Notes under the pieces: generated by a model
The model's database searches: none
Seen by the model: the letters and a program-made list of their open reading frames with translations, nothing else
Told to the model about the DNA's origin: nothing
In this document: positions 47,205 through 60,961 of the stretch, piece after piece
Numbering within the stretch: position 1 is the first letter of the stretch
Layout of the letters: the number at the start of each line of letters is the position of its first letter
Position numbers and translations under genes: made by a program
Source: a bacterium
GTDB taxonomy: Bacteria; Patescibacteriota; Microgenomatia; UBA10105; UBA927
Direction of reading: 5' to 3'
NCBI GenBank assembly: GCA_021817785.1
Contig: JAKAFY010000001.1
Location: forward strand, 26,446 to 90,445
Length of the DNA: 64,000 nucleotides

Positions 47205-48557
47205 TCAGACGGATGCCAATACGCGGGTAAGAACATCGATAACCCGTACCATTTCTTCGGGTGACTCCAGCCCCGGGGATATACGGAGAAATATGTTTTC
47301 AAAGGGACTGCGCGGAGACCATGTGTATACACGCGTTACCGGAGTGCCGAATGTGCTCCCGGCAAGAAGCGGGACATGGCTCTTTTTGGCTTCACGGACC
47401 ACAGATTGCATTACTGCTCTATACGTGCGGTATGACGCTCCGGGGAATTCTATGGCGACAAACGCACCGGTATACCCTATCCGTTTGGCCGTACGAAATC
47501 CCGCATGCGACGCCAAACCGGGATAGCTTGCGCGGACATGCGGCAGGGAGGAAATTGCGCGAGCGATTTCTGCCGCATTTGTTGCTAACCTCTGAAGATA
47601 ACCCGCATGAACTTTTTTGTTCGGGGAAGGCATGGTAGCCGCCGCTGCTTCCGATATATTTACTCCGGCATGGTCGCGCACGCGATAGATCGTATCTGCC
47701 GGTATGCCGTGTGCCCACAGTATGCCCCCTGTCGTCCGATCCAACCCGAACTGATGAAATTTATTGAGACTCTCATATGCCATCAGCGATACGTTCCGCG
47801 CAAGATATGCGTGGGCCGGCATCCGGAAATGTTCCATAGATACGCATGTCGTATCGATCACCATATCGACATGATGCCTAAGTTTCCCCGCAAACGCATA
47901 AATGCGCGAAACATCCGCAACAGTCATGGAGGGGTCGTTTGCCAGAAGATCAAAAAATATGGCATGGGGCGCGATATCTGCGAGTGCGGCCGGCGATGCT
48001 TCATCAAATATGGTTATACGGTCATCAGGAAACATCATGTGCAAAAGTTCCTGATTTTCGAAATAGCTGTGCCGGCCCACGGCAATGCGATAGGTATCCG
48101 GCAACCGCTGCCGGACGACAAGCGCTGCAACCGTAAGCGCCGCCATGCCGCTCGTCGTAGCAAACGCGGTGGGAGCACCGAACAAACGGGGTATGTATTC
48201 GCGTACATATGCTTTTTCATATGCGATTCCTACGGGGTGCTGGTCCCGTTTATAGTCATTTATATTTGCGAGAATTTTTCCCTGTTCGTCTCCGACTTCG
48301 TTTGCGTACGATGCATCAAACGCGGGCGACTGCCAATGATCCGCGGTAAGTGTTCCCCCGAGCTGACCATATAAAACATGACAGTGCTGGAATACCCCGT
48401 GCCATGCGCCGATATCGGCCGGTTCGTTCCGCTGTACACATTCCCGAAGCGTTTGAAATTCGCGTACTAGCTGCGATGCATTCCGTTTTTTCCGGAGCTT
48501 TTGCGCGGCATCGTCGACAAGATACAGAAGGATTTGATTTTGCACATCCATACGCAC
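47205..48557 (-). CDS. PLP-dependent enzyme, Cys/Met-metabolism family (cystathionine gamma-synthase/lyase-like)
   Basis: AFATTSGMAALTVA and ESLNKFHQFGLDRTTGGIL resemble the SGMAA and SxTKYxGGHSD PLP-lysine region. The N-terminal ~60 aa extension is atypical. Confidence 0.6.
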   Translation of the reverse strand: MRMDVQNQILLYLVDDAAQKLRKKRNASQLVREFQTLRECVQRNEPADIGAWHGVFQHCHVLYGQLGGTLTADHWQSPAFDASYANEVGDEQGKILANINDYKRDQHPVGIAYEKAYVREYIPRLFGAPTAFATTSGMAALTVAALVVRQRLPDTYRIAVGRHSYFENQELLHMMFPDDRITIFDEASPAALADIAPHAIFFDLLANDPSMTVADVSRIYAFAGKLRHHVDMVIDTTCVSMEHFRMPAHAYLARNVSLMAYESLNKFHQFGLDRTTGGILWAHGIPADTIYRVRDHAGVNISEAAAATMPSPNKKVHAGYLQRLATNAAEIARAISSLPHVRASYPGLASHAGFRTAKRIGYTGAFVAIEFPGASYRTYRAVMQSVVREAKKSHVPLLAGSTFGTPVTRVYTWSPRSPFENIFLRISPGLESPEEMVRVIDVLTRVLASV

Positions 48558-53644: not shown

Positions 53645-54283
53645 TTATCGGGCGAGGAAAAACCGGTTGTACGGCAGGTCAGCCCGGGAGACACGGGAAA
53701 ATTGTTTTTTCAGTATCGTGTAAAGACCTTCTGATCGTTGTTCAAACGCGCCGTCGTGCAGAAAATTGAAAAGAACCGACCCCCCAGGCGTTATGCGCGC
53801 GCGCAGATGTCGTACAAATTGTTCTGAGGATTCAAACTCTGGGATCATTCGGCCGATATACAAATCAACGATGATGAGATCGTATTTCTTCCTGTCCTTT
53901 TGGACGTATTCCGACGCATCAGAGGTGACAAGCTTCAATGGTGTAATACCCGATAGTCCAAAATATTTCCGACCTATGGCGATGATCCGTTCATCTATAT
54001 CCACTCCCGTAAGCGATGCCCCGGGATACCGCGCGTGAAGCATATGGATGACCGATCCGCCGCCTACGCCCAAGACCAGGATGGTTTGTACCCTGGTCAC
54101 CTCCGGAAGCTCCACGTGCGAAAACGCGTACATCCAGAAGCCTTCGATCATCGGCCCGGATTGCTGGATACCGTTCACCAACAGTTTTTTCCTGCCGTTT
54201 TCCATCACCACGCGGATATCCCTATTATACGGAGACGATGCACGGGTGATCGTCCGGGGAAAAAGATAAGAAAGCCAGTTCAT
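53645..54283 (-). CDS. class I SAM-dependent methyltransferase, spermidine synthase-like
   Basis: ILVLGVGGGSVIHMLHARYPGASLTGVDIDERIIAIGRKYF and DLIIVDLY, a Rossmann MTase/aminopropyltransferase-like fold. Confidence 0.6.
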   Translation of the reverse strand: MNWLSYLFPRTITRASSPYNRDIRVVMENGRKKLLVNGIQQSGPMIEGFWMYAFSHVELPEVTRVQTILVLGVGGGSVIHMLHARYPGASLTGVDIDERIIAIGRKYFGLSGITPLKLVTSDASEYVQKDRKKYDLIIVDLYIGRMIPEFESSEQFVRHLRARITPGGSVLFNFLHDGAFEQRSEGLYTILKKQFSRVSRADLPYNRFFLAR

Positions 54284-55608
54284 CGGCGTATTTCTTTTTT
54301 GCCAACCAGTGGCTGCAAAACCTCCGGAATACGTATGGACCCATCCGCCTGCTGATAATTTTCCAGTATGGCGATGAGAATCCGCGGGGATGCGATCGCC
54401 GTATTATTGAGCGTATGGACGTATTTTGTCGACCCGTCTTTTGCTTTATACCGGATTTTCAGCCGACGTGACTGAAAGTCGCCCATAAATGAATTTGACA
54501 TGGTTTCTCCGTAATTTCCATATCCTGAGCCTGCCGAAGGACGCCCGGGCATCCACGTTTCCACGTCATACTTTTTTACCTGCGGCTCCCCCATATCTCC
54601 GGTGCACATCAAAAGTACCCGGTATGGGAGTCCCAGATCCTGCAATATTTCCTCTGAATTCGCCAACAACTCTTCATGGAGAGTAAGGGAAGTACTCGTT
54701 TCCGCTGGCGCCACAATTACTTGTTCAATTTTGTTAAATTGGTGCACTCTGTAGACCCCTTTGGTATCTTTGCCGTAACTGCCCGCCTCCCTGCGGTAAC
54801 AGGACGAAAACGCGACAAATTTTTTCGGTAAATCTTTTTCAAGAAGCATCTCGTCTGCAAAATATGAGGTCACCGGCACTTCTGCCGTCCCGGCAAGATA
54901 CATATCATCTTTTTCGAGATGATACACTTCATCCCGCCCCCATGGCAGCTGTGCATTCCCAAACAACGTAAACTCTTTGACGATGCTTGGTGCGATCAAC
55001 GGAGTATATCCTTTGGCCACCAGTTTCTGAAACGCATAAAACATCACGGCAAATTCAAGCATGGCTGCTTCATTTTTCAGAAAATAGGCGCGGAATCCGC
55101 CGACTTTCGCACCCCGATCAAAATCGATAAGGTCCAATGACCGTGCAAGCTCTATATGATCTTTTGGAACGAAATCAAACTCAGGAATCTTTCCAACTTT
55201 TTTTACCTCGACGTTATCATGCTCATCTTTTCCGATAGGCACCGACGCGTCCGGCACATTGGGGACGGTAAGCATAAGCAGATTAAACTGCTCTTCCGTC
55301 GCCCGCGTTTCGTCTTCCAGCGCCTTGAGCTCCCCCTCCGGATGACTGAATTGCCGTACCGCTTCATCGACAGCCTTTTGTTTCTTTTCCTTATCCGCAC
55401 GATCCTCCGGAGATAGTTGTTGTATCGCTTGCTTTATGGCGTCGTTTACTTTGTTCTTCTCCGACTTCATGGCATCCCGCTTCTCGATAAGCTCCCGCCG
55501 CTTCTCATCGAGCCGCAGCAGTGCATCCCAATCTACCTCGCGATTTTTGTTTTTCGCAGCGGTTTTGCAAAGTTCCAGATTTTCCCGAATAAATTTTATA
55601 TCCAGCAT
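54280..55608 (-). CDS. serS: seryl-tRNA synthetase
   Basis: Start MLDIKFIRENLE. N-terminal coiled-coil arm and class II motifs (FRREAGSYGKDTKGVYRVHQF, GSGYGNYGE). Confidence 0.9.
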   Translation of the reverse strand: MLDIKFIRENLELCKTAAKNKNREVDWDALLRLDEKRRELIEKRDAMKSEKNKVNDAIKQAIQQLSPEDRADKEKKQKAVDEAVRQFSHPEGELKALEDETRATEEQFNLLMLTVPNVPDASVPIGKDEHDNVEVKKVGKIPEFDFVPKDHIELARSLDLIDFDRGAKVGGFRAYFLKNEAAMLEFAVMFYAFQKLVAKGYTPLIAPSIVKEFTLFGNAQLPWGRDEVYHLEKDDMYLAGTAEVPVTSYFADEMLLEKDLPKKFVAFSSCYRREAGSYGKDTKGVYRVHQFNKIEQVIVAPAETSTSLTLHEELLANSEEILQDLGLPYRVLLMCTGDMGEPQVKKYDVETWMPGRPSAGSGYGNYGETMSNSFMGDFQSRRLKIRYKAKDGSTKYVHTLNNTAIASPRILIAILENYQQADGSIRIPEVLQPLVGKKEIRR

Positions 55609-55768
55609 ACCGAGTAGTGAAATTTCGACCATTGCGTTTTACGCTTTGGGAAATTCCCTCTTCCTTTCTATCGCAATCGCATTCAATATATTTCCGGGTA
55701 ATCAATTTCTTATGCAATGACACCAAAGCGTGTCGAAATTCTACTACCCGGATAGTTGTAGAATACGG

Positions 55769-56416
55769 CTAAAGTGCATGGTTTGCAAGGTTAGACCGTA
55801 AGCCCTCTAAATGTTTTGTATCGTTTACCGCACTCACCTTTACTTCATCGCCTTTAAGATATATCGTTGTGATGGCCGCGGGCTGAAGTTCTATATTCCA
55901 CATCTTATCAGGGTCCATCGCAAGCAAATCTACCAATAGCGACCGGATAATATTATCATGGGTCACTACTACAGTAGTACCGTAAACAGCCGGCAGTAGT
56001 TCGTTCCACCAGTCCATTGTGCGCATCCTGGTCTGTGCAAATGTTTCCCCGCCGGGAAATGCCGCCTGAGACGGAGCACTTTGCCATAACGCATATTCTC
56101 TGGTCCAGCGGTCACGTATCGCTCCAATAGCATTCCCTTCCCAATCACCATGGTTTGTTTCAATAATTTTAGGCTCTACTTCCACCGATACTTCGGCATG
56201 CCACTTTGCTATAGCGTCCGCCGTCTGCCGCGTACGCGTTAAAGGACTCGTAATAAGTCGGTCTATCTGTATATCACGTAACCGATCGCCCAACGCATTG
56301 GCTTGCCTTTGCCCCAACTCCGATAACGGCGTGTCATAGGTTTGTCCCTGATATATGCCCTCGGTATTTGCTACCGATTCGCCATGACGCACCAAATACA
56401 GCATTTTTTCGACCAT
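55769..56416 (-). CDS. histidine phosphatase family protein (phosphoglycerate mutase/CobC-like)
   Basis: LYLVRHGESVANTEGIYQG...SPLTRTRQTA. RHG catalytic motif. Confidence 0.8.
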   Translation of the reverse strand: MVEKMLYLVRHGESVANTEGIYQGQTYDTPLSELGQRQANALGDRLRDIQIDRLITSPLTRTRQTADAIAKWHAEVSVEVEPKIIETNHGDWEGNAIGAIRDRWTREYALWQSAPSQAAFPGGETFAQTRMRTMDWWNELLPAVYGTTVVVTHDNIIRSLLVDLLAMDPDKMWNIELQPAAITTIYLKGDEVKVSAVNDTKHLEGLRSNLANHAL

Positions 56417-56660
56417 AAAAAAACACCTCCTTTTCTTTTTGAAAAGACGAGGTGTTCTCGTGGTGCCACTTTTCTTTGGTATATCGTTGCCGATATACGC
56501 TTCGTCACTTCTCCGCCAGTTGGCGACAAAGCGACTATTCTGTAACGGGAACTCCCGGATTTTCTTCGATACTCCTGTTGTAGTACTTTCGAAAATCGGC
56601 TCTACCGAGGGAATGTTCGGTATATAACGCCTGTATGTACTTGTTAACGTTCATATATTA
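56417..56660 (-). promoter_or_regulatory. structured ~240-nt 5' leader ending in a terminator/anti-SD hairpin directly abutting the start codon (riboswitch- or attenuator-like)
   Basis: The minus-strand RNA ends ...ACACCUCGUCUUUUCAAAAAGAAAAGGAGGUGUUUUUUUAUG. About 13 bp of stem (ACACCUC/GAGGUGU plus CUUUUC/GAAAAG) sequesters GGAGG. A U7 tract follows, then AUG. There is no room for a separate promoter between hairpin and start. Confidence 0.45.
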
Positions 56661-57311
56661 TCACGATTTTCTGCCTTCCACAACATCCCGTACTGCAAAA
56701 TGCGCTTCCGCAAACGGCAACGCCAGACGGAACACCACGAAAAATACCGCGGCGTTTATGTACATAAGTACCGCCCGCTGCAGGCCAAAGAGAGCAAACG
56801 TCAGGATACCGAGTACGGTATCCATAAGCAGAAAAAACTTGGGGGCGGATATGCGGCTGAATTTTCGGACAATCGGCATGATCGAACTGTAGCTGCCGAA
56901 ACTATAGCCGTTCGCCATAACAAGCGCGATAGCCAGCGCCGCCGAAGTGCCTTGGGTGATAGTAAAAAACATGTAGGAAACGAGCGGTTCGTGCGCTACC
57001 TGCTGGATATGGAGGAAATTTTTTGACGAATCGATAAAAAACGAAACCAGCACGTACCCGTACACCCCACGCAACCCGGCAGTTTTTCCCGCGATCACAA
57101 ACGAGAGGAGTAATACTATCGTGTTTGCGATAAGCAGCGTCATACCGACCGGGAAATGAAGGACATAATTGATATCCAGTGCGTATCCCGGAAACCCACC
57201 GCTTACCAGCCGATACCGCCATGAGAGATAGTTTATAGACAGTCCCAACAAGATGATGCCAAAGGATGATATGACCAACCGGTATAGTTCACGTACTATT
57301 TTTTTGTTCAT
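56661..57311 (-). CDS. YitT-family (DUF161) membrane protein
   Basis: 216 aa with 5-6 TM. SFGIILLGLSINYLSWRYRLVSGGFPGYAL is a YitT N-terminal signature. Confidence 0.7.
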   Translation of the reverse strand: MNKKIVRELYRLVISSFGIILLGLSINYLSWRYRLVSGGFPGYALDINYVLHFPVGMTLLIANTIVLLLSFVIAGKTAGLRGVYGYVLVSFFIDSSKNFLHIQQVAHEPLVSYMFFTITQGTSAALAIALVMANGYSFGSYSSIMPIVRKFSRISAPKFFLLMDTVLGILTFALFGLQRAVLMYINAAVFFVVFRLALPFAEAHFAVRDVVEGRKS

Positions 57312-57980: not shown

Positions 57981-58349
57981 TTATTTATTCAGAATAGCAG
58001 AGAAAATCAAAACCAGCTCATGCACTTCTTTCCATAGTAGCCGACACGTCTCTACGCCCTGCGGTACCGCTTTAGATATCATGCGTAGCCAGTGCATCGT
58101 TTCTTTACTTTCCTTCTTGCACAACGCTATCTTAAATCGAAAATCCTTTTTAGAATCAGCGGCATCAGCTTCCATGTAGTTTGCCCCAATACTTGTCGCT
58201 GACCGGACAAGTTGGTTGATGAGCGGAGAATTTATTGGCGAAGCCGGGACAGTGCTGGCAAATTCGATAACGCGCTCGCCGAATACGGCCGTTCGTTCCT
58301 GTAAATCATACTTTTTTGAGGGCTTTGAACTTTGAGCTTGATTTGTCAT
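57981..58349 (-). CDS. four-helix-bundle protein (23S rRNA intervening-sequence protein family, TIGR02436-like)
   Basis: Start MTNQAQSSKPSKKYDLQERTAVFGERVIEFASTVP...SIGANYMEADAADSKKDFRFKIALCKKESKETMHWLRMI. Confidence 0.7.
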   Translation of the reverse strand: MTNQAQSSKPSKKYDLQERTAVFGERVIEFASTVPASPINSPLINQLVRSATSIGANYMEADAADSKKDFRFKIALCKKESKETMHWLRMISKAVPQGVETCRLLWKEVHELVLIFSAILNK

Positions 58350-58372
58350 TTGAGCGTTGACCTTTGAGCGTA

Positions 58373-58975
58373 TTATAATCCGAGTTCTTCGTGATGGTCC
58401 TGCATGGTCTTCAGCGTGAGGGCAATAAAATCTGCAAGCGGAATGTGCAGCTTTTCTTCGCATTGGGCGATCTGTTCACGTTCTACCGCAGCGGCAAATG
58501 CCTTTTGTTTCCATTTCTTTAACACTGCCTCTACGGTCACCTGTTGTAATCGACTCTTTCCTTGCCCCTCCGAAGCTTCATGCGAAGGGAGGTCGGGACG
58601 AACAAGCGCAACAGCGACGATAAAGCCAGTCAATTCATCGACAGTCTCCAACGCCCATTCCATATCTCCTTCGAGCTCTGCCAGATGCGTGAGTTTTCGG
58701 TTATGCGACATCATGGCATGAACAATAGGCCCATCTGTTTCCCCCGTATCATTAAGCCACGCAAGCGTGTGCTTGGTGTGCATATCCGGCGTGTCTTTGG
58801 TTTCTTCCCAGTCTGCGTCGTGGAGAAGCCCCAATGTCTCCCACATATCGGGGTTTCCCCCCAGCTTTTCTGCCAGCGCCCGCATGGCAAATCCTACCGC
58901 ATACATGTGCCGGCGGAGATTCTGGTTTTGGGTGTGTGCGTGGAGCAAATCGAGTGCCTGATTCTTCGTGATCAT
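58373..58975 (-). CDS. HD-domain phosphohydrolase (YqeK/HDIG-like)
   Basis: Start MITKNQALDLLHAHTQNQNLRRHMYAVGFAMRALAEKLGG...LGLLHDADWE (H...HD...D). Confidence 0.65.
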   Translation of the reverse strand: MITKNQALDLLHAHTQNQNLRRHMYAVGFAMRALAEKLGGNPDMWETLGLLHDADWEETKDTPDMHTKHTLAWLNDTGETDGPIVHAMMSHNRKLTHLAELEGDMEWALETVDELTGFIVAVALVRPDLPSHEASEGQGKSRLQQVTVEAVLKKWKQKAFAAAVEREQIAQCEEKLHIPLADFIALTLKTMQDHHEELGL

Positions 58976-58979
58976 GGAT

Positions 58980-60914
58980 TTATTTAAAAAGTGAAAATTT
59001 CTTGGTAAACTCACGAAGCTCGTCTGTTTTTCCAAACAGACAGATACCGAAATAATCAAGTTCAGCCTCCGGTGTTTCACCGGTTTTGCGGACCTGATCC
59101 GCCGATGTACCGACGGTCATCGTACTCGTAAAGTCGGTGAATATAATACCGCGTTTTTTTGCTTCTTCACGCACTGATCTGATTTGTTTTGCGTTATCTG
59201 CTTTCAATACGATAAACGGGAAGTGGGAAATATTTGGATGCACTCCCCCCTCTTTATCTTTATATTGCAAAAAGCACATATCTTTGGCTTTCTCAAATCC
59301 TCCGGCCAAACCGGCCGTCATGTGACCCAGGGCATTCATCAATCTGCCCGCTTCGACATCGTCTCGCAGAATTGCGATAAACCGCATACTCTTTTCATCC
59401 GGCAACGAAGTGGCCTTGACTGCTACCGGAGCTACGTCAACACCTGTCATTTTCTCCGGTCTAAGTGTGGGAAATGGGATCACTTCTTTAATCGATCGTG
59501 CGTCGGTAAGAAGCATCACGAACCGGTCGATACCTATGGCTATCCCGCACGTCGGAGGAAATCCGTGTTCGATCGCGGTGAGATAATCGTAGTCCGTCTG
59601 ATGCGCTTCATCGAAGCCTGCTTTTTCCCGTTCTTTTTCGTCGATAAACCGTTTGCGTAAATCTATCGGGTCGTTCAACTCCGTATAGTTGTTGCCGAGT
59701 TCGGAGCCAAACGCAAACATTTCGAACCGTTGGGTAAACCGCGGGTCCGCACATTTTTTGGCCAATGGCGAAATTTCTATCGGATAGTCATAGATAATCG
59801 TCGGCTGGATAAGTTTTTCCTCCACTGCTTCTTCAAACAGGAATGCGATACATTCTCCGATATGCTGCATTTTTTTCAATTCCGCGAATTTATGTTCGGC
59901 TATGCCTTCTACTTTTTGTATTGCGGCTTTCGCCTCGGCCAGCGTCTTCCACGATAGTGCATCGACCCCGGTAAATTCTTTGATGGCTTCCACGACTTTG
60001 TACCTGCTCCAGGGGCGTTTTACGTTCATCTCCACACCCTGATACATAAATTTCGTGGTTCCCAATACTTTGAGCGCTGTGTACTCAAAAATTTCTTCGA
60101 TGATATCCATGCCATAGGAATAATCCTCATACGCAATTTGCGCTTCAAACATCGTAAATTCCGGATTATGATCATGATCCACTCCTTCATTCCGGAATAC
60201 TTTTGTGATTTCAAACACTTTATCAAATCCACCGACGATCATCCGTTTCAAATACATTTCATCGGAAATCCTAAGATAAAAATTTGCATCGAGTTCGTTG
60301 TGGTGGGTAGAAAACGGCCTGGCAAATCCGCCGCCATAGACCGGCTGCAATGTCGGGGTTTCCACTTCCAGAAATCCGCGGTCCGTCAGAAAATCCCGCA
60401 CGCTATCTATAATCTTGCTTCGCAGTTGCAACCGATGTTTTACGTCTTCATTGAGTATCGTATCCAGATACCGTTTGCGGTACCGTTCCTCTACATCCTT
60501 CAATCCATGCCATTGATCAGGAAGAGGCAAAAGTGTTTTCGTAAGCAGCTGGAAGTCACTCGCAAAGACAGACACTTCACCCGCCTGCGTTTTGCCAATC
60601 ATGCCCTGCACGGCAATAAAATCAGCAATATCGAGAAGCGGAATAAGGGAAAATGCGGCGGCAGTACACGAGTCGGCTTTGAGCACCACCTGAATGTGCC
60701 CTGATTCGTCCTGCATGTCGACGAAATAGATTTTTCCGTGTCCGCGCATACCGACGATACGTCCGGTGATCGCCACTTCTTTTGCATCCATCTCACGAGC
60801 TTGTCCGATGGTTTGGTCGCGGCGCACGCTAGAGGGATATGGGTCTATCCCCTGCTTTTTTAACGCTTCAAGCTTTTCCAACCGAGCCTTTTTCAGATCA
60901 TCTATGGTTGCCAT
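58980..60914 (-). CDS. lysS: lysyl-tRNA synthetase (class II) with ~150-aa C-terminal DUF2000-like extension
   Basis: Start MATIDDLKKARLEKLE. OB anticodon-binding domain plus class II motifs through GIAIGIDRFVMLLTDARSIKEVIPFPTLRP. An extra domain follows: KSMRFIAILRDDVEAGRLMNALGHMTAGLAGG...FPFIVLKADNAKQIR... Confidence 0.85.
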   Translation of the reverse strand: MATIDDLKKARLEKLEALKKQGIDPYPSSVRRDQTIGQAREMDAKEVAITGRIVGMRGHGKIYFVDMQDESGHIQVVLKADSCTAAAFSLIPLLDIADFIAVQGMIGKTQAGEVSVFASDFQLLTKTLLPLPDQWHGLKDVEERYRKRYLDTILNEDVKHRLQLRSKIIDSVRDFLTDRGFLEVETPTLQPVYGGGFARPFSTHHNELDANFYLRISDEMYLKRMIVGGFDKVFEITKVFRNEGVDHDHNPEFTMFEAQIAYEDYSYGMDIIEEIFEYTALKVLGTTKFMYQGVEMNVKRPWSRYKVVEAIKEFTGVDALSWKTLAEAKAAIQKVEGIAEHKFAELKKMQHIGECIAFLFEEAVEEKLIQPTIIYDYPIEISPLAKKCADPRFTQRFEMFAFGSELGNNYTELNDPIDLRKRFIDEKEREKAGFDEAHQTDYDYLTAIEHGFPPTCGIAIGIDRFVMLLTDARSIKEVIPFPTLRPEKMTGVDVAPVAVKATSLPDEKSMRFIAILRDDVEAGRLMNALGHMTAGLAGGFEKAKDMCFLQYKDKEGGVHPNISHFPFIVLKADNAKQIRSVREEAKKRGIIFTDFTSTMTVGTSADQVRKTGETPEAELDYFGICLFGKTDELREFTKKFSLFK

Positions 60915-60961
60915 ATATGTATTATATACATCCACCTTCGCCAAGGCTACGGTGGACACAG

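Follow-up and report, generated by a model that had tools for sequence, protein, structure and literature searches.

We propose that the minus-strand segment 56417-56660 of the window, by which we mean the whole 64,000-nt stretch of DNA analysed here, is a T-box leader that senses tRNA-Ser and controls a phosphatase-serS operon in a Microgenomates bacterium of the Candidate Phyla Radiation (CPR)/Patescibacteria, and we consider this assignment very likely to be correct. The segment is a 244-nt intergenic region lying between an open reading frame (ORF) for a YitT-family membrane protein (56661-57311) and an ORF of the histidine-phosphatase family His_Phos_1, and on the minus strand it reads ...ACACCUCGUCUUUUCAAAAAGAAAAGGAGGUGUUUUUUUAUG. 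An initial annotation of the same DNA had described a structured regulatory leader, perhaps a cobalamin riboswitch, in front of a CobC-like phosphatase. The conserved, structured leader is borne out by a T-box match and by homologous leaders in about 36 Microgenomates loci; the ligand and the enzyme are a different matter, as set out below.

The Rfam scan and the conservation check that the annotation had suggested gave a significant match and strong conservation, with the T-box in place of the cobalamin family. The T-box leader model RF00230 matches 56440-56636 on the minus strand with 54.8 bits (E 7e-11 when scanned locally, 3e-9 for the window as a whole), and this is the sole significant Rfam match of the leader. 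Even with permissive filters and a limit of E <= 10, the region 55500-56900 matched neither cobalamin nor any other metabolite riboswitch families. Matches to PyrR, GmglnB1, mir-515, SNORA14 and TCL6 (E 0.6-7) were treated as chance. At gathering thresholds, the whole window yields a tRNA-Glu only. When RF00230 is run on relatives of the leader, six score 43-63 bits and six others give no match at E <= 0.01; therefore, annotation based on thresholds would not report these leaders.

The 3′ end of the leader is arranged exactly as the initial annotation had placed it: on the minus strand, a terminator stem at 56456-56422, a U7 run at 56423-56417, GGAGG at 56430-56426 and AUG at 56416-56414. The Shine-Dalgarno (SD) sequence GGAGG lies 9 nt from the AUG, occurs once in 56401-56670 and has all its bases paired within the 3′ arm of the terminator. 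Together, the hairpin and the U-run make up an intrinsic terminator (56417-56456, minus). The hairpin has a folding energy of -15.0 kcal/mol (z = -4.3), which 1 of 200 shuffles reaches; when the extension is included, the energy is -20.3 kcal/mol and none of 200 shuffles is as good. Across 15 leaders, 95% of the cells in the hairpin are paired. The 2-nt bulge in its stem explains why a simple terminator scanner passed over it. The AUG directly 3′ of the U-run is the true start of the phosphatase, rather than a codon further downstream as the initial annotation had also considered: close homologues start at the same aligned position (MVENVV.., MAKIYLVRH..) and have no internal Met.

With the only SD buried in the terminator, the initial annotation had argued that an alternative upstream structure must exist, and this structure is found in the T-box antiterminator (56441-56474, minus). 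It consists of helix A1 (6 bp, GAAAAG/CUUUUC), a 7-nt bulge, UGGCACC, at 56468-56462 and helix A2 (5 bp, ACGAG/CUCGU). The T-box 14-mer AAAGUGGCACCACG at 56472-56459 agrees at 11 of 14 positions with the consensus AGGGUGGNACCGCG (PMC11297988). The antiterminator has an energy of -8.5 kcal/mol when folded and -7.0 kcal/mol when the structure is evaluated directly; it is 99-100% paired in alignment A3, which holds 15 leaders, and shows compensatory differences in two of them (L022 and L015; the L numbers designate loci of the comparison). The segment 56456-56441 serves the antiterminator as its 3′ half and the terminator as its 5′ strand, so only one of the two structures can form at a time.

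Upstream of these elements, the leader folds as a chain of hairpins, with a minimum free energy (MFE) of -78.9 kcal/mol and z = -6.2 over the whole 237 nt. Stem I (56598-56631, minus) is truncated to 34 nt: a 3-bp base, GGC/GCC, an asymmetric internal loop at the kink-turn (K-turn) position, a 5-bp upper helix, UACCG/CGGUA, and the apical loop. The window leader thus has no long Stem I with the distal platform of interdigitated T-loops that stacks on the tRNA elbow. Stem II (56558-56597, minus) is made up of two helices, 7 bp below and 5 bp above, that flank an internal loop rich in purines (GAAA / CGAA) at the S-turn position. It is followed by the Stem IIA hairpin, CGGG-AGUU-CCCG, which with UUACAGAA makes up the Stem IIA/B pseudoknot (56538-56557, minus). 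An extra linker hairpin of variable form (56504-56535, minus), supported by the MFE fold and by alignment A3, corresponds to the sole Stem III-like hairpin of the shorter leaders L010, L040 and L088. Stem III proper (GUAUAUCG-GCAA-CGAUAUAC; 56479-56498, minus) lies between a conserved AAG (5′) and a conserved AAAG (3′). The strings in which the initial annotation had seen a likeness to cobalamin riboswitches (GAAAAUCC, UCCCG, ACAG and GCCAACUGGCGGAG) are all present, and they belong to the 3′ strand of Stem II, the Stem IIA/B pseudoknot and the extra hairpin; the cobalamin likeness itself does not hold.

Comparison of the leaders supports Stem I, Stem II, the Stem IIA/B pseudoknot and Stem III by covariation. 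In alignment A5, an unfitted MAFFT alignment of the 14 leaders of the window clade onto which the structure was written from the window sequence, 92.3% of cells are paired, against 37-51% with slid partners, and 13 of 24 pairs show changes in both partners. The covariation score reaches 0.496, whereas slid partners give 0.158 at most; none of 500 shuffles scores as high. With 37 sequences (alignment A6), 91.8% of cells are paired (35-46% slid), the doubly changed pairs rise to 21 of 24, and the score is 0.595 (at most 0.136 slid). The upper helix of Stem I is 100% paired in A5, with four of its five pairs covarying, and 98% paired in A6, with all five covarying; its variants include ACCG/CGGU, GGUUG/CAACC, AUCG/CGAU, CCUG/CAGG and GCCG/CGGC. 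Compensatory changes affect five of the seven pairs of the lower Stem II helix in A5 and all seven in A6, as well as four of five in the upper helix. The Stem II domain is present and conserved in all leaders found, and residues C53, G54, A56, A57, A78, A79 and G80 (numbered as in the 227-nt leader of A3), the loop purines among them, are invariant in the clade. Stem IIA is 96-100% paired. In the pseudoknot, the last base of the loop and its partner at the AG[A/C] position form U-A in 16 sequences and G-C in 13, with other combinations in 3. In Stem III, seven of eight pairs change on both sides in A3, which is also unfitted. RNAalifold applied to raw MAFFT alignments mixed the terminator with the antiterminator, missed Stem I and suffered from misaligned divergent leaders; it was replaced by module-wise alignment and a covariance model.

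That covariance model, R1, was built here from the decoding module. A genome scan for the phosphatase, whose homologues are found in Microgenomates (Gottesman-, Ames-, Woese- and Collierbacteria), gave 79 loci, 41 of them from Microgenomates. R1 has 36 matches at E < 0.01, all on the coding strand and upstream of the phosphatase in Microgenomates loci, and no match in the 38 Chloroflexi, Actinobacteria or other loci, which encode more distant phosphatase homologues. A strict regular expression for the T-box core found 14 leaders only, a count that was discarded after the covariance model gave about 36. Within the group, the leaders are 132-230 nt long. The distribution of serS follows the same line: it lies immediately 3′ of the phosphatase gene in 38 of the 41 Microgenomates loci, the other three ending at a contig edge, and in that position in none of the Chloroflexi, Actinobacteria or other loci among the 79. 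Six further contigs of closer relatives (in the range L082-L088) keep the phosphatase-serS synteny, with 15 nt between the genes.

As to the amino acid, the apical specifier loop AACAUUCCCU (56608-56617, minus; 10 nt) carries the serine codon UCC at 56612-56610. UCC is found in all of the approximately 36 Stem I loops, preceded by U, A or C (as in AAUCCAA, CAUCCAA and CCUCCAA); the base on its 3′ side is A in most lineages and C in the window clade. In 34 of the 36 leaders, the bulge of the T-box reads UGGC, and the two others have UGGU. Bacterial tRNA-Ser has G73 as its discriminator base. Because UCC is invariant, UGGC fits G73, and serS is in the operon, the effector is best taken to be a tRNA-Ser that reads UCC. 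It is very unlikely that another codon is read, namely UUC (Phe) or CCC/CCA (Pro). The window loop, UUCCCU, does hold UUC and CCC along with UCC, and CCC and the CCA of other clades are both proline codons. However, UUC is lost in L027 (AAUCCAA), L030 (CAUCCAA) and L037 (CCUCCAA), and under a CCN reading the codon would precede a variable base, often a pyrimidine; with UCC, in contrast, the next base is A in most lineages. In addition, bacterial tRNA-Phe and tRNA-Pro have A73, but the bulge reads UGGC, and the regulated synthetase is SerRS. T-boxes with the Ser codon UCC are known on serS, serA and serC in Firmicutes (PMC8002221).

What is the output of the leader? A hairpin followed by at least five U residues ends 31 of the 36 homologous leaders, and the hairpin sequences are unrelated in other clades. 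The SD lies within the terminator, and the AUG comes after the U-run, in the window clade and in L018, L020, L024 and L026, which is not the case in all lineages: in L005, L016, L025, L028 and L038, the terminator hairpin has no SD. Since the hairpin and U-run are kept in 31 of 36 leaders, lineages with an SD-free hairpin included, transcription attenuation is the conserved output. A T-box acting at translation alone, as an SD sequestrator like the Class III leaders of actinobacterial ileS, with the U-run being incidental, is therefore unlikely. It would agree with the description of short-Stem-I classes as mostly translational (PMC10482949, PMC11297988) and with the complete pairing of GGAGG, 9 nt from the AUG, in the hairpin. 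On the other hand, a stable, GC-containing hairpin followed at once by U7 is a canonical intrinsic terminator, and the hairpin with at least five U is found also where there is no SD to sequester. A combined transcriptional and translational effect is more economical than translation only.

Three leaders without a U-run, L027, L031 and L039, may be translational variants. In L039, L029 and L031, there is no clean U-run, and the phosphatase ORF has an N-terminal extension (MEEDL...). In these same three loci, the 3′ portion of the T-box offers a CUUCC to which the AUGGAAG of the ORF could pair, and this may be a translational variant of the leader that sequesters the start codon.

The mechanism that we propose for the window leader is inferred from the established T-box paradigm, its parts being recognized by sequence and comparison. 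When seryl-tRNA is plentiful, the charged tRNA would be unable to stabilize the antiterminator, so the terminator would form and RNA polymerase would stop at U7, before the AUG. Transcripts that escape termination would still be silent in translation while in the terminator fold, as their GGAGG would be sequestered. When uncharged tRNA-Ser(GGA) accumulates, its anticodon would pair with UCC, and this pairing would be clamped by the purine loop of Stem II, given that Stem I has no elbow-binding platform. The free 3′-GCCA of the tRNA would then pair with UGGC, stabilizing the antiterminator and allowing the operon to be transcribed and translated. The result would be more capacity for serine charging (SerRS) and, most likely, more serine supply.

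It might also be supposed that the hairpin is simply a constitutive terminator of the upstream YitT-family gene and that the remainder is a structured untranslated region with no regulatory role. The hairpin and U7 do lie downstream of the YitT ORF and on the same strand. Nevertheless, they are 240 nt past its stop codon and abut the next start codon; the upstream gene changes in relatives, where it may be Ham1 or thymidylate synthase, yet the leader still goes with the phosphatase; and the T-box sequence, specifier loop and covarying helices would serve no role in a plain terminator. We regard this explanation as extremely improbable.

Several observations weigh against the T-box assignment or parts of it. 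The RF00230 score of 54.8 bits is far under the gathering threshold of 93; this is attributable to the absence of most of Stem I, where the Rfam alignment has just 6 nt in place of 72 consensus positions. At the K-turn position, the window clade has UA opposite GA (GGC-GUUAUA / GA-GCC) and not tandem GA/GA; the canonical GUU-GA / GA is present in the divergent relatives L015, L012, L025 and L005. The base after the codon in the window clade is C, not the canonical purine. No tRNA-Ser gene was found in the window or in the 41 loci, where the search gave tRNA-Glu only, so the GGA anticodon and G73 are assumed. A1, A2 and the terminator vary little within the clade and therefore rest on conservation and thermodynamics more than on covariation, and a search for a rigid coaxial A1-bulge-A2 arrangement failed in most divergent lineages. 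Finally, co-transcription of serS is less certain here than in the relatives with a 15-nt gap because of a 160-nt structured insertion between the two genes.

This spacer, from the stop codon of the phosphatase to the likely start of serS (55609-55768, minus), has a folding energy of -49.2 kcal/mol with z = -4.5. In the closest relatives, the interval is about 15 nt, and only the first 17 nt of the window spacer match L082; it looks like a lineage-specific insertion of about 145 nt. The spacer matches no Rfam family, and a search for further copies in the window and the loci found none. The serS gene itself, second in the operon (54280-55632, minus), matches TIGR00414 with 466 bits, and its true start is likely at 55608 (MLDIKF...).

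The first regulated gene (55769-56416, minus) encodes a 215-aa protein of the histidine-phosphatase superfamily, a candidate metal-independent phosphoserine phosphatase. It scores 182.1 bits against PF00300, for which the cutoff is 21.7, and has the RHG/RHxES motif, with R10, H11, E13 and S14 invariant in 48 homologues. The initial annotation had taken it for a CobC-like enzyme of the B12 pathway. TIGR03162 (CobC) is indeed its top NCBIfam match by score, but the 141.1 bits fall below the equivalog cutoff of 162.9, and the partner gene is serS. Its best match in the Protein Data Bank is the PspA of Hydrogenobacter (4IJ5; E 3.8e-25 over residues 6-203), with PhoE and CobC behind. Phosphoserine phosphatases of the His_Phos_1 type have been put forward elsewhere on the strength of genome context (PMC9026213). 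Given the Ser T-box and the lineage-wide linkage to serS, phosphoserine phosphatase is the best inference for its activity. Two results weigh against a phosphoserine substrate: the PspA model NF045917 scores 123.8 bits, below its equivalog cutoff of 350, and there is no serA or serC in the part of the window covered by gene annotation, 27.8-64 kb. The protein thus falls outside the PspA equivalog, though its activity may be similar. On balance, we give an even chance to a PspA-like phosphoserine phosphatase rather than a CobC.

These results bear as well on the proposal of a cobalamin or other small-molecule riboswitch controlling a CobC-type alpha-ribazole phosphatase. Such a proposal would be in keeping with the length and structure of the leader and with the rank of the CobC model among the NCBIfam matches. 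It is opposed by the absence of any metabolite riboswitch match at E <= 10 and by the fact that T-box parts account for every conserved element; moreover, the CobC score is under its cutoff, PspA is the nearer solved relative, serS is the operon partner throughout the lineage, and the annotated 27.8-64 kb contain no cobalamin genes. We assign it a negligible probability. The likeness to known pairs of cobalamin riboswitch and CobC is confined to a long structured leader that ends in a terminator upstream of a histidine-phosphatase gene; beyond the differences just given, the window leader has the hallmarks of a T-box.

Transcription of the operon would start at approximately 56647-56650, downstream of a putative extended -10 promoter element, TGATAATAT, recognized by eye at 56655-56663 (minus). 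Relatives have TTGACA-N17-TATAAT/TACAAT or TGnTAnnAT at an equal distance upstream of a conserved 5′ segment, UUAACAAGUAAAUAAAGGCG. A consensus promoter scanner made no call at the putative -10, and the -35 is poor. The first 16 nt or so of the presumed transcript, UUAACAAGUA(A/C)AUA(A/C)A (window 56632-56650, minus), are kept across the clade though they lie 5′ of Stem I; only the final few bases of this segment resemble the 5′ end of the Rfam consensus.

Four classes of T-box have been published. The distal elbow platform defines Classes I and II and is absent from III and IV (PMC10482949). Class III has a short Stem I with no elbow-binding double T-loop and a specifier in an apical loop of 5-6 nt, and depends on Stem II (PMC10482949, PMC7583486, PMC11297988). 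Classes III and IV "mostly regulate translation initiation", the examples being actinobacterial ileS leaders (PMC10482949, PMC7583486, PMC11297988), and the truncated-Stem-I model of the T-box database TBDB was searched in Actinobacteria only (PMC7778990). With the Class III leaders of Nocardia farcinica and Mycobacterium tuberculosis ileS ("class II/translational" in TBDB), the window leader shares the short Stem I, apical specifier, purine loop of Stem II, IIA/B pseudoknot, Stem III and a bulge that pairs with the tRNA 3′ end (PMC10482949, PMC7583486). It differs from them in being specific for Ser (UCC/UGGC) instead of Ile (AUC/UGGU) and in its host, a CPR Microgenomates bacterium instead of Actinobacteria. 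Its apical loop is 10 nt (7-10 in relatives), longer than the published 5-6 nt, its first regulated gene is a phosphatase instead of a synthetase, and its output takes the form of an intrinsic terminator with U7 in which the SD is hidden as well, whereas the ileS leaders are SD sequestrators alone. In sum, the window leader is best placed in the known T-box family, with an architecture of the Class III type, and what is notable is its host, its Ser specificity and its cargo.

The Class I Ser T-boxes of Firmicutes (serS, serA and serC) have in common with it the effector tRNA-Ser, the codon UCC in several cases, antitermination with a U-run and a regulon for serine charging and supply (PMC8002221), but the window leader is without some 70 nt of their Stem I. 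Two leaders of the group, at L035 529-1207 and L036 1803-2501, have a Stem I with an extra distal hairpin, and their T-box lies about 480-510 nt before the phosphatase; they look Class IV-like. Between the T-box and the phosphatase of L035 lie another structured stretch and a small ORF of at most 100 aa. As for the enzyme, the PspA of Hydrogenobacter thermophilus (4IJ5) likewise has the His_Phos_1 fold and the RHxES motif, but it is only about 35% identical to the window phosphatase, whose substrate is predicted. The "SerB2" predicted in gut Firmicutes was likewise assigned by genome context with serine genes (PMC9026213). Unlike the setting of PspA, the host organisms here are thought to have little amino-acid biosynthesis.

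How widespread is the compact design? A metagenome pattern scan that was independent of the specifier and not specific to CPR, and so serves as a comparison set rather than a census, gave at least 80 loci; R1 matched 45 of the 80 listed. Among those listed, a compact Stem I precedes ORFs resembling LeuRS, PheS, ValRS, IleRS, TrpRS and SerRS, each with the matching codon, and an IlvD-like ORF follows a loop with the Leu codon CUC; several of these compact T-boxes have clear terminators. R1 also matches high-GC, AUC-bearing metagenome leaders that resemble Class III. One case is L109, a TrpRS locus with specifier UGG, bulge UGGC and a hairpin with U-run, which belongs to Microgenomates by its nearest named homologues. 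Short-Stem-I T-boxes with terminators are thus unique neither to the phosphatase-serS operon nor to CPR, and in Microgenomates at least one further synthetase gene has a leader of this design. The occurrence of such T-boxes elsewhere therefore lowers the architectural novelty of the window leader and raises the possibility of a T-box regulon in CPR; a wider regulon is what these loci suggest.

Other compact Stem I T-boxes, with matching codons among UGG, AUC, GUC, CUC and UUC, were noted upstream of other synthetase and amino-acid genes of metagenomes at L155 and L101 (IleRS-like), L111 (ValRS-like), L141, L135, L157, L131 and L096 as well as at L109, many with a hairpin and U-run. L155, L101 and L111 share a CPR-style Stem I base (GCGUUAUUAG...GAGC). 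Many Microgenomates homologues of the L109 TrpRS carry a fused domain, either B3_4 (PF03483; proteins of about 555-570 aa) or YbaK/aminoacyl-tRNA editing (PF04073; about 485-490 aa).

Three other ORFs of the window may be recorded, all on the minus strand. At 58980-60959 lies a class II tRNA synthetase of the lysyl/aspartyl type, 659 aa long, with a C-terminal DUF2000 (121 bits); no T-box precedes it, and its relatives have an additional B3_4 domain. The ORF at 57981-58463, which has the Ham1 and HD-domain genes as its neighbours, belongs to the 23S rRNA intervening-sequence protein family (PF05635) and stands on its own, outside any rRNA gene. A 450-aa ORF at 47205-48557 has a weak match (46 bits) to pyridoxal phosphate (PLP) enzymes of Cys/Met metabolism and is the only candidate enzyme of amino-acid metabolism in 27.8-64 kb besides the phosphatase.

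A well-supported and testable T-box mechanism thus replaces a speculative B12 riboswitch, and the T-box system reaches the Candidate Phyla Radiation in a form that lies under the Rfam gathering threshold. A full-text literature search, whose coverage is incomplete and which is no proof that none exists, returned no paper joining the T-box with the Candidate Phyla Radiation or Patescibacteria; a 2024 perspective called CPR regulatory mechanisms virtually unknown. To the Class III architecture, studied so far only on actinobacterial ileS, these leaders add examples that are specific for Ser and end in a terminator. At 132-230 nt, they are very compact natural tRNA sensors and could interest engineers of T-box devices. 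The leader also gives a clue to the function of a conserved "hypothetical" phosphatase whose gene stays with serS throughout the lineage.

It is tempting to go further and propose, tentatively and with more doubt than confidence, that Microgenomates possess, lineage-wide, miniaturized T-boxes that are platform-less and terminate transcription, on phosphatase-serS, on at least trpS (L109) and probably on ileS and valS with the same Stem I base, and that the phosphatase partnered with serS is a dedicated phosphoserine phosphatase. If this is true, miniaturized T-boxes would be among the few regulators identified in these reduced genomes, and bacteria presumed to be amino-acid auxotrophs would make or salvage serine under the control of tRNA charging.

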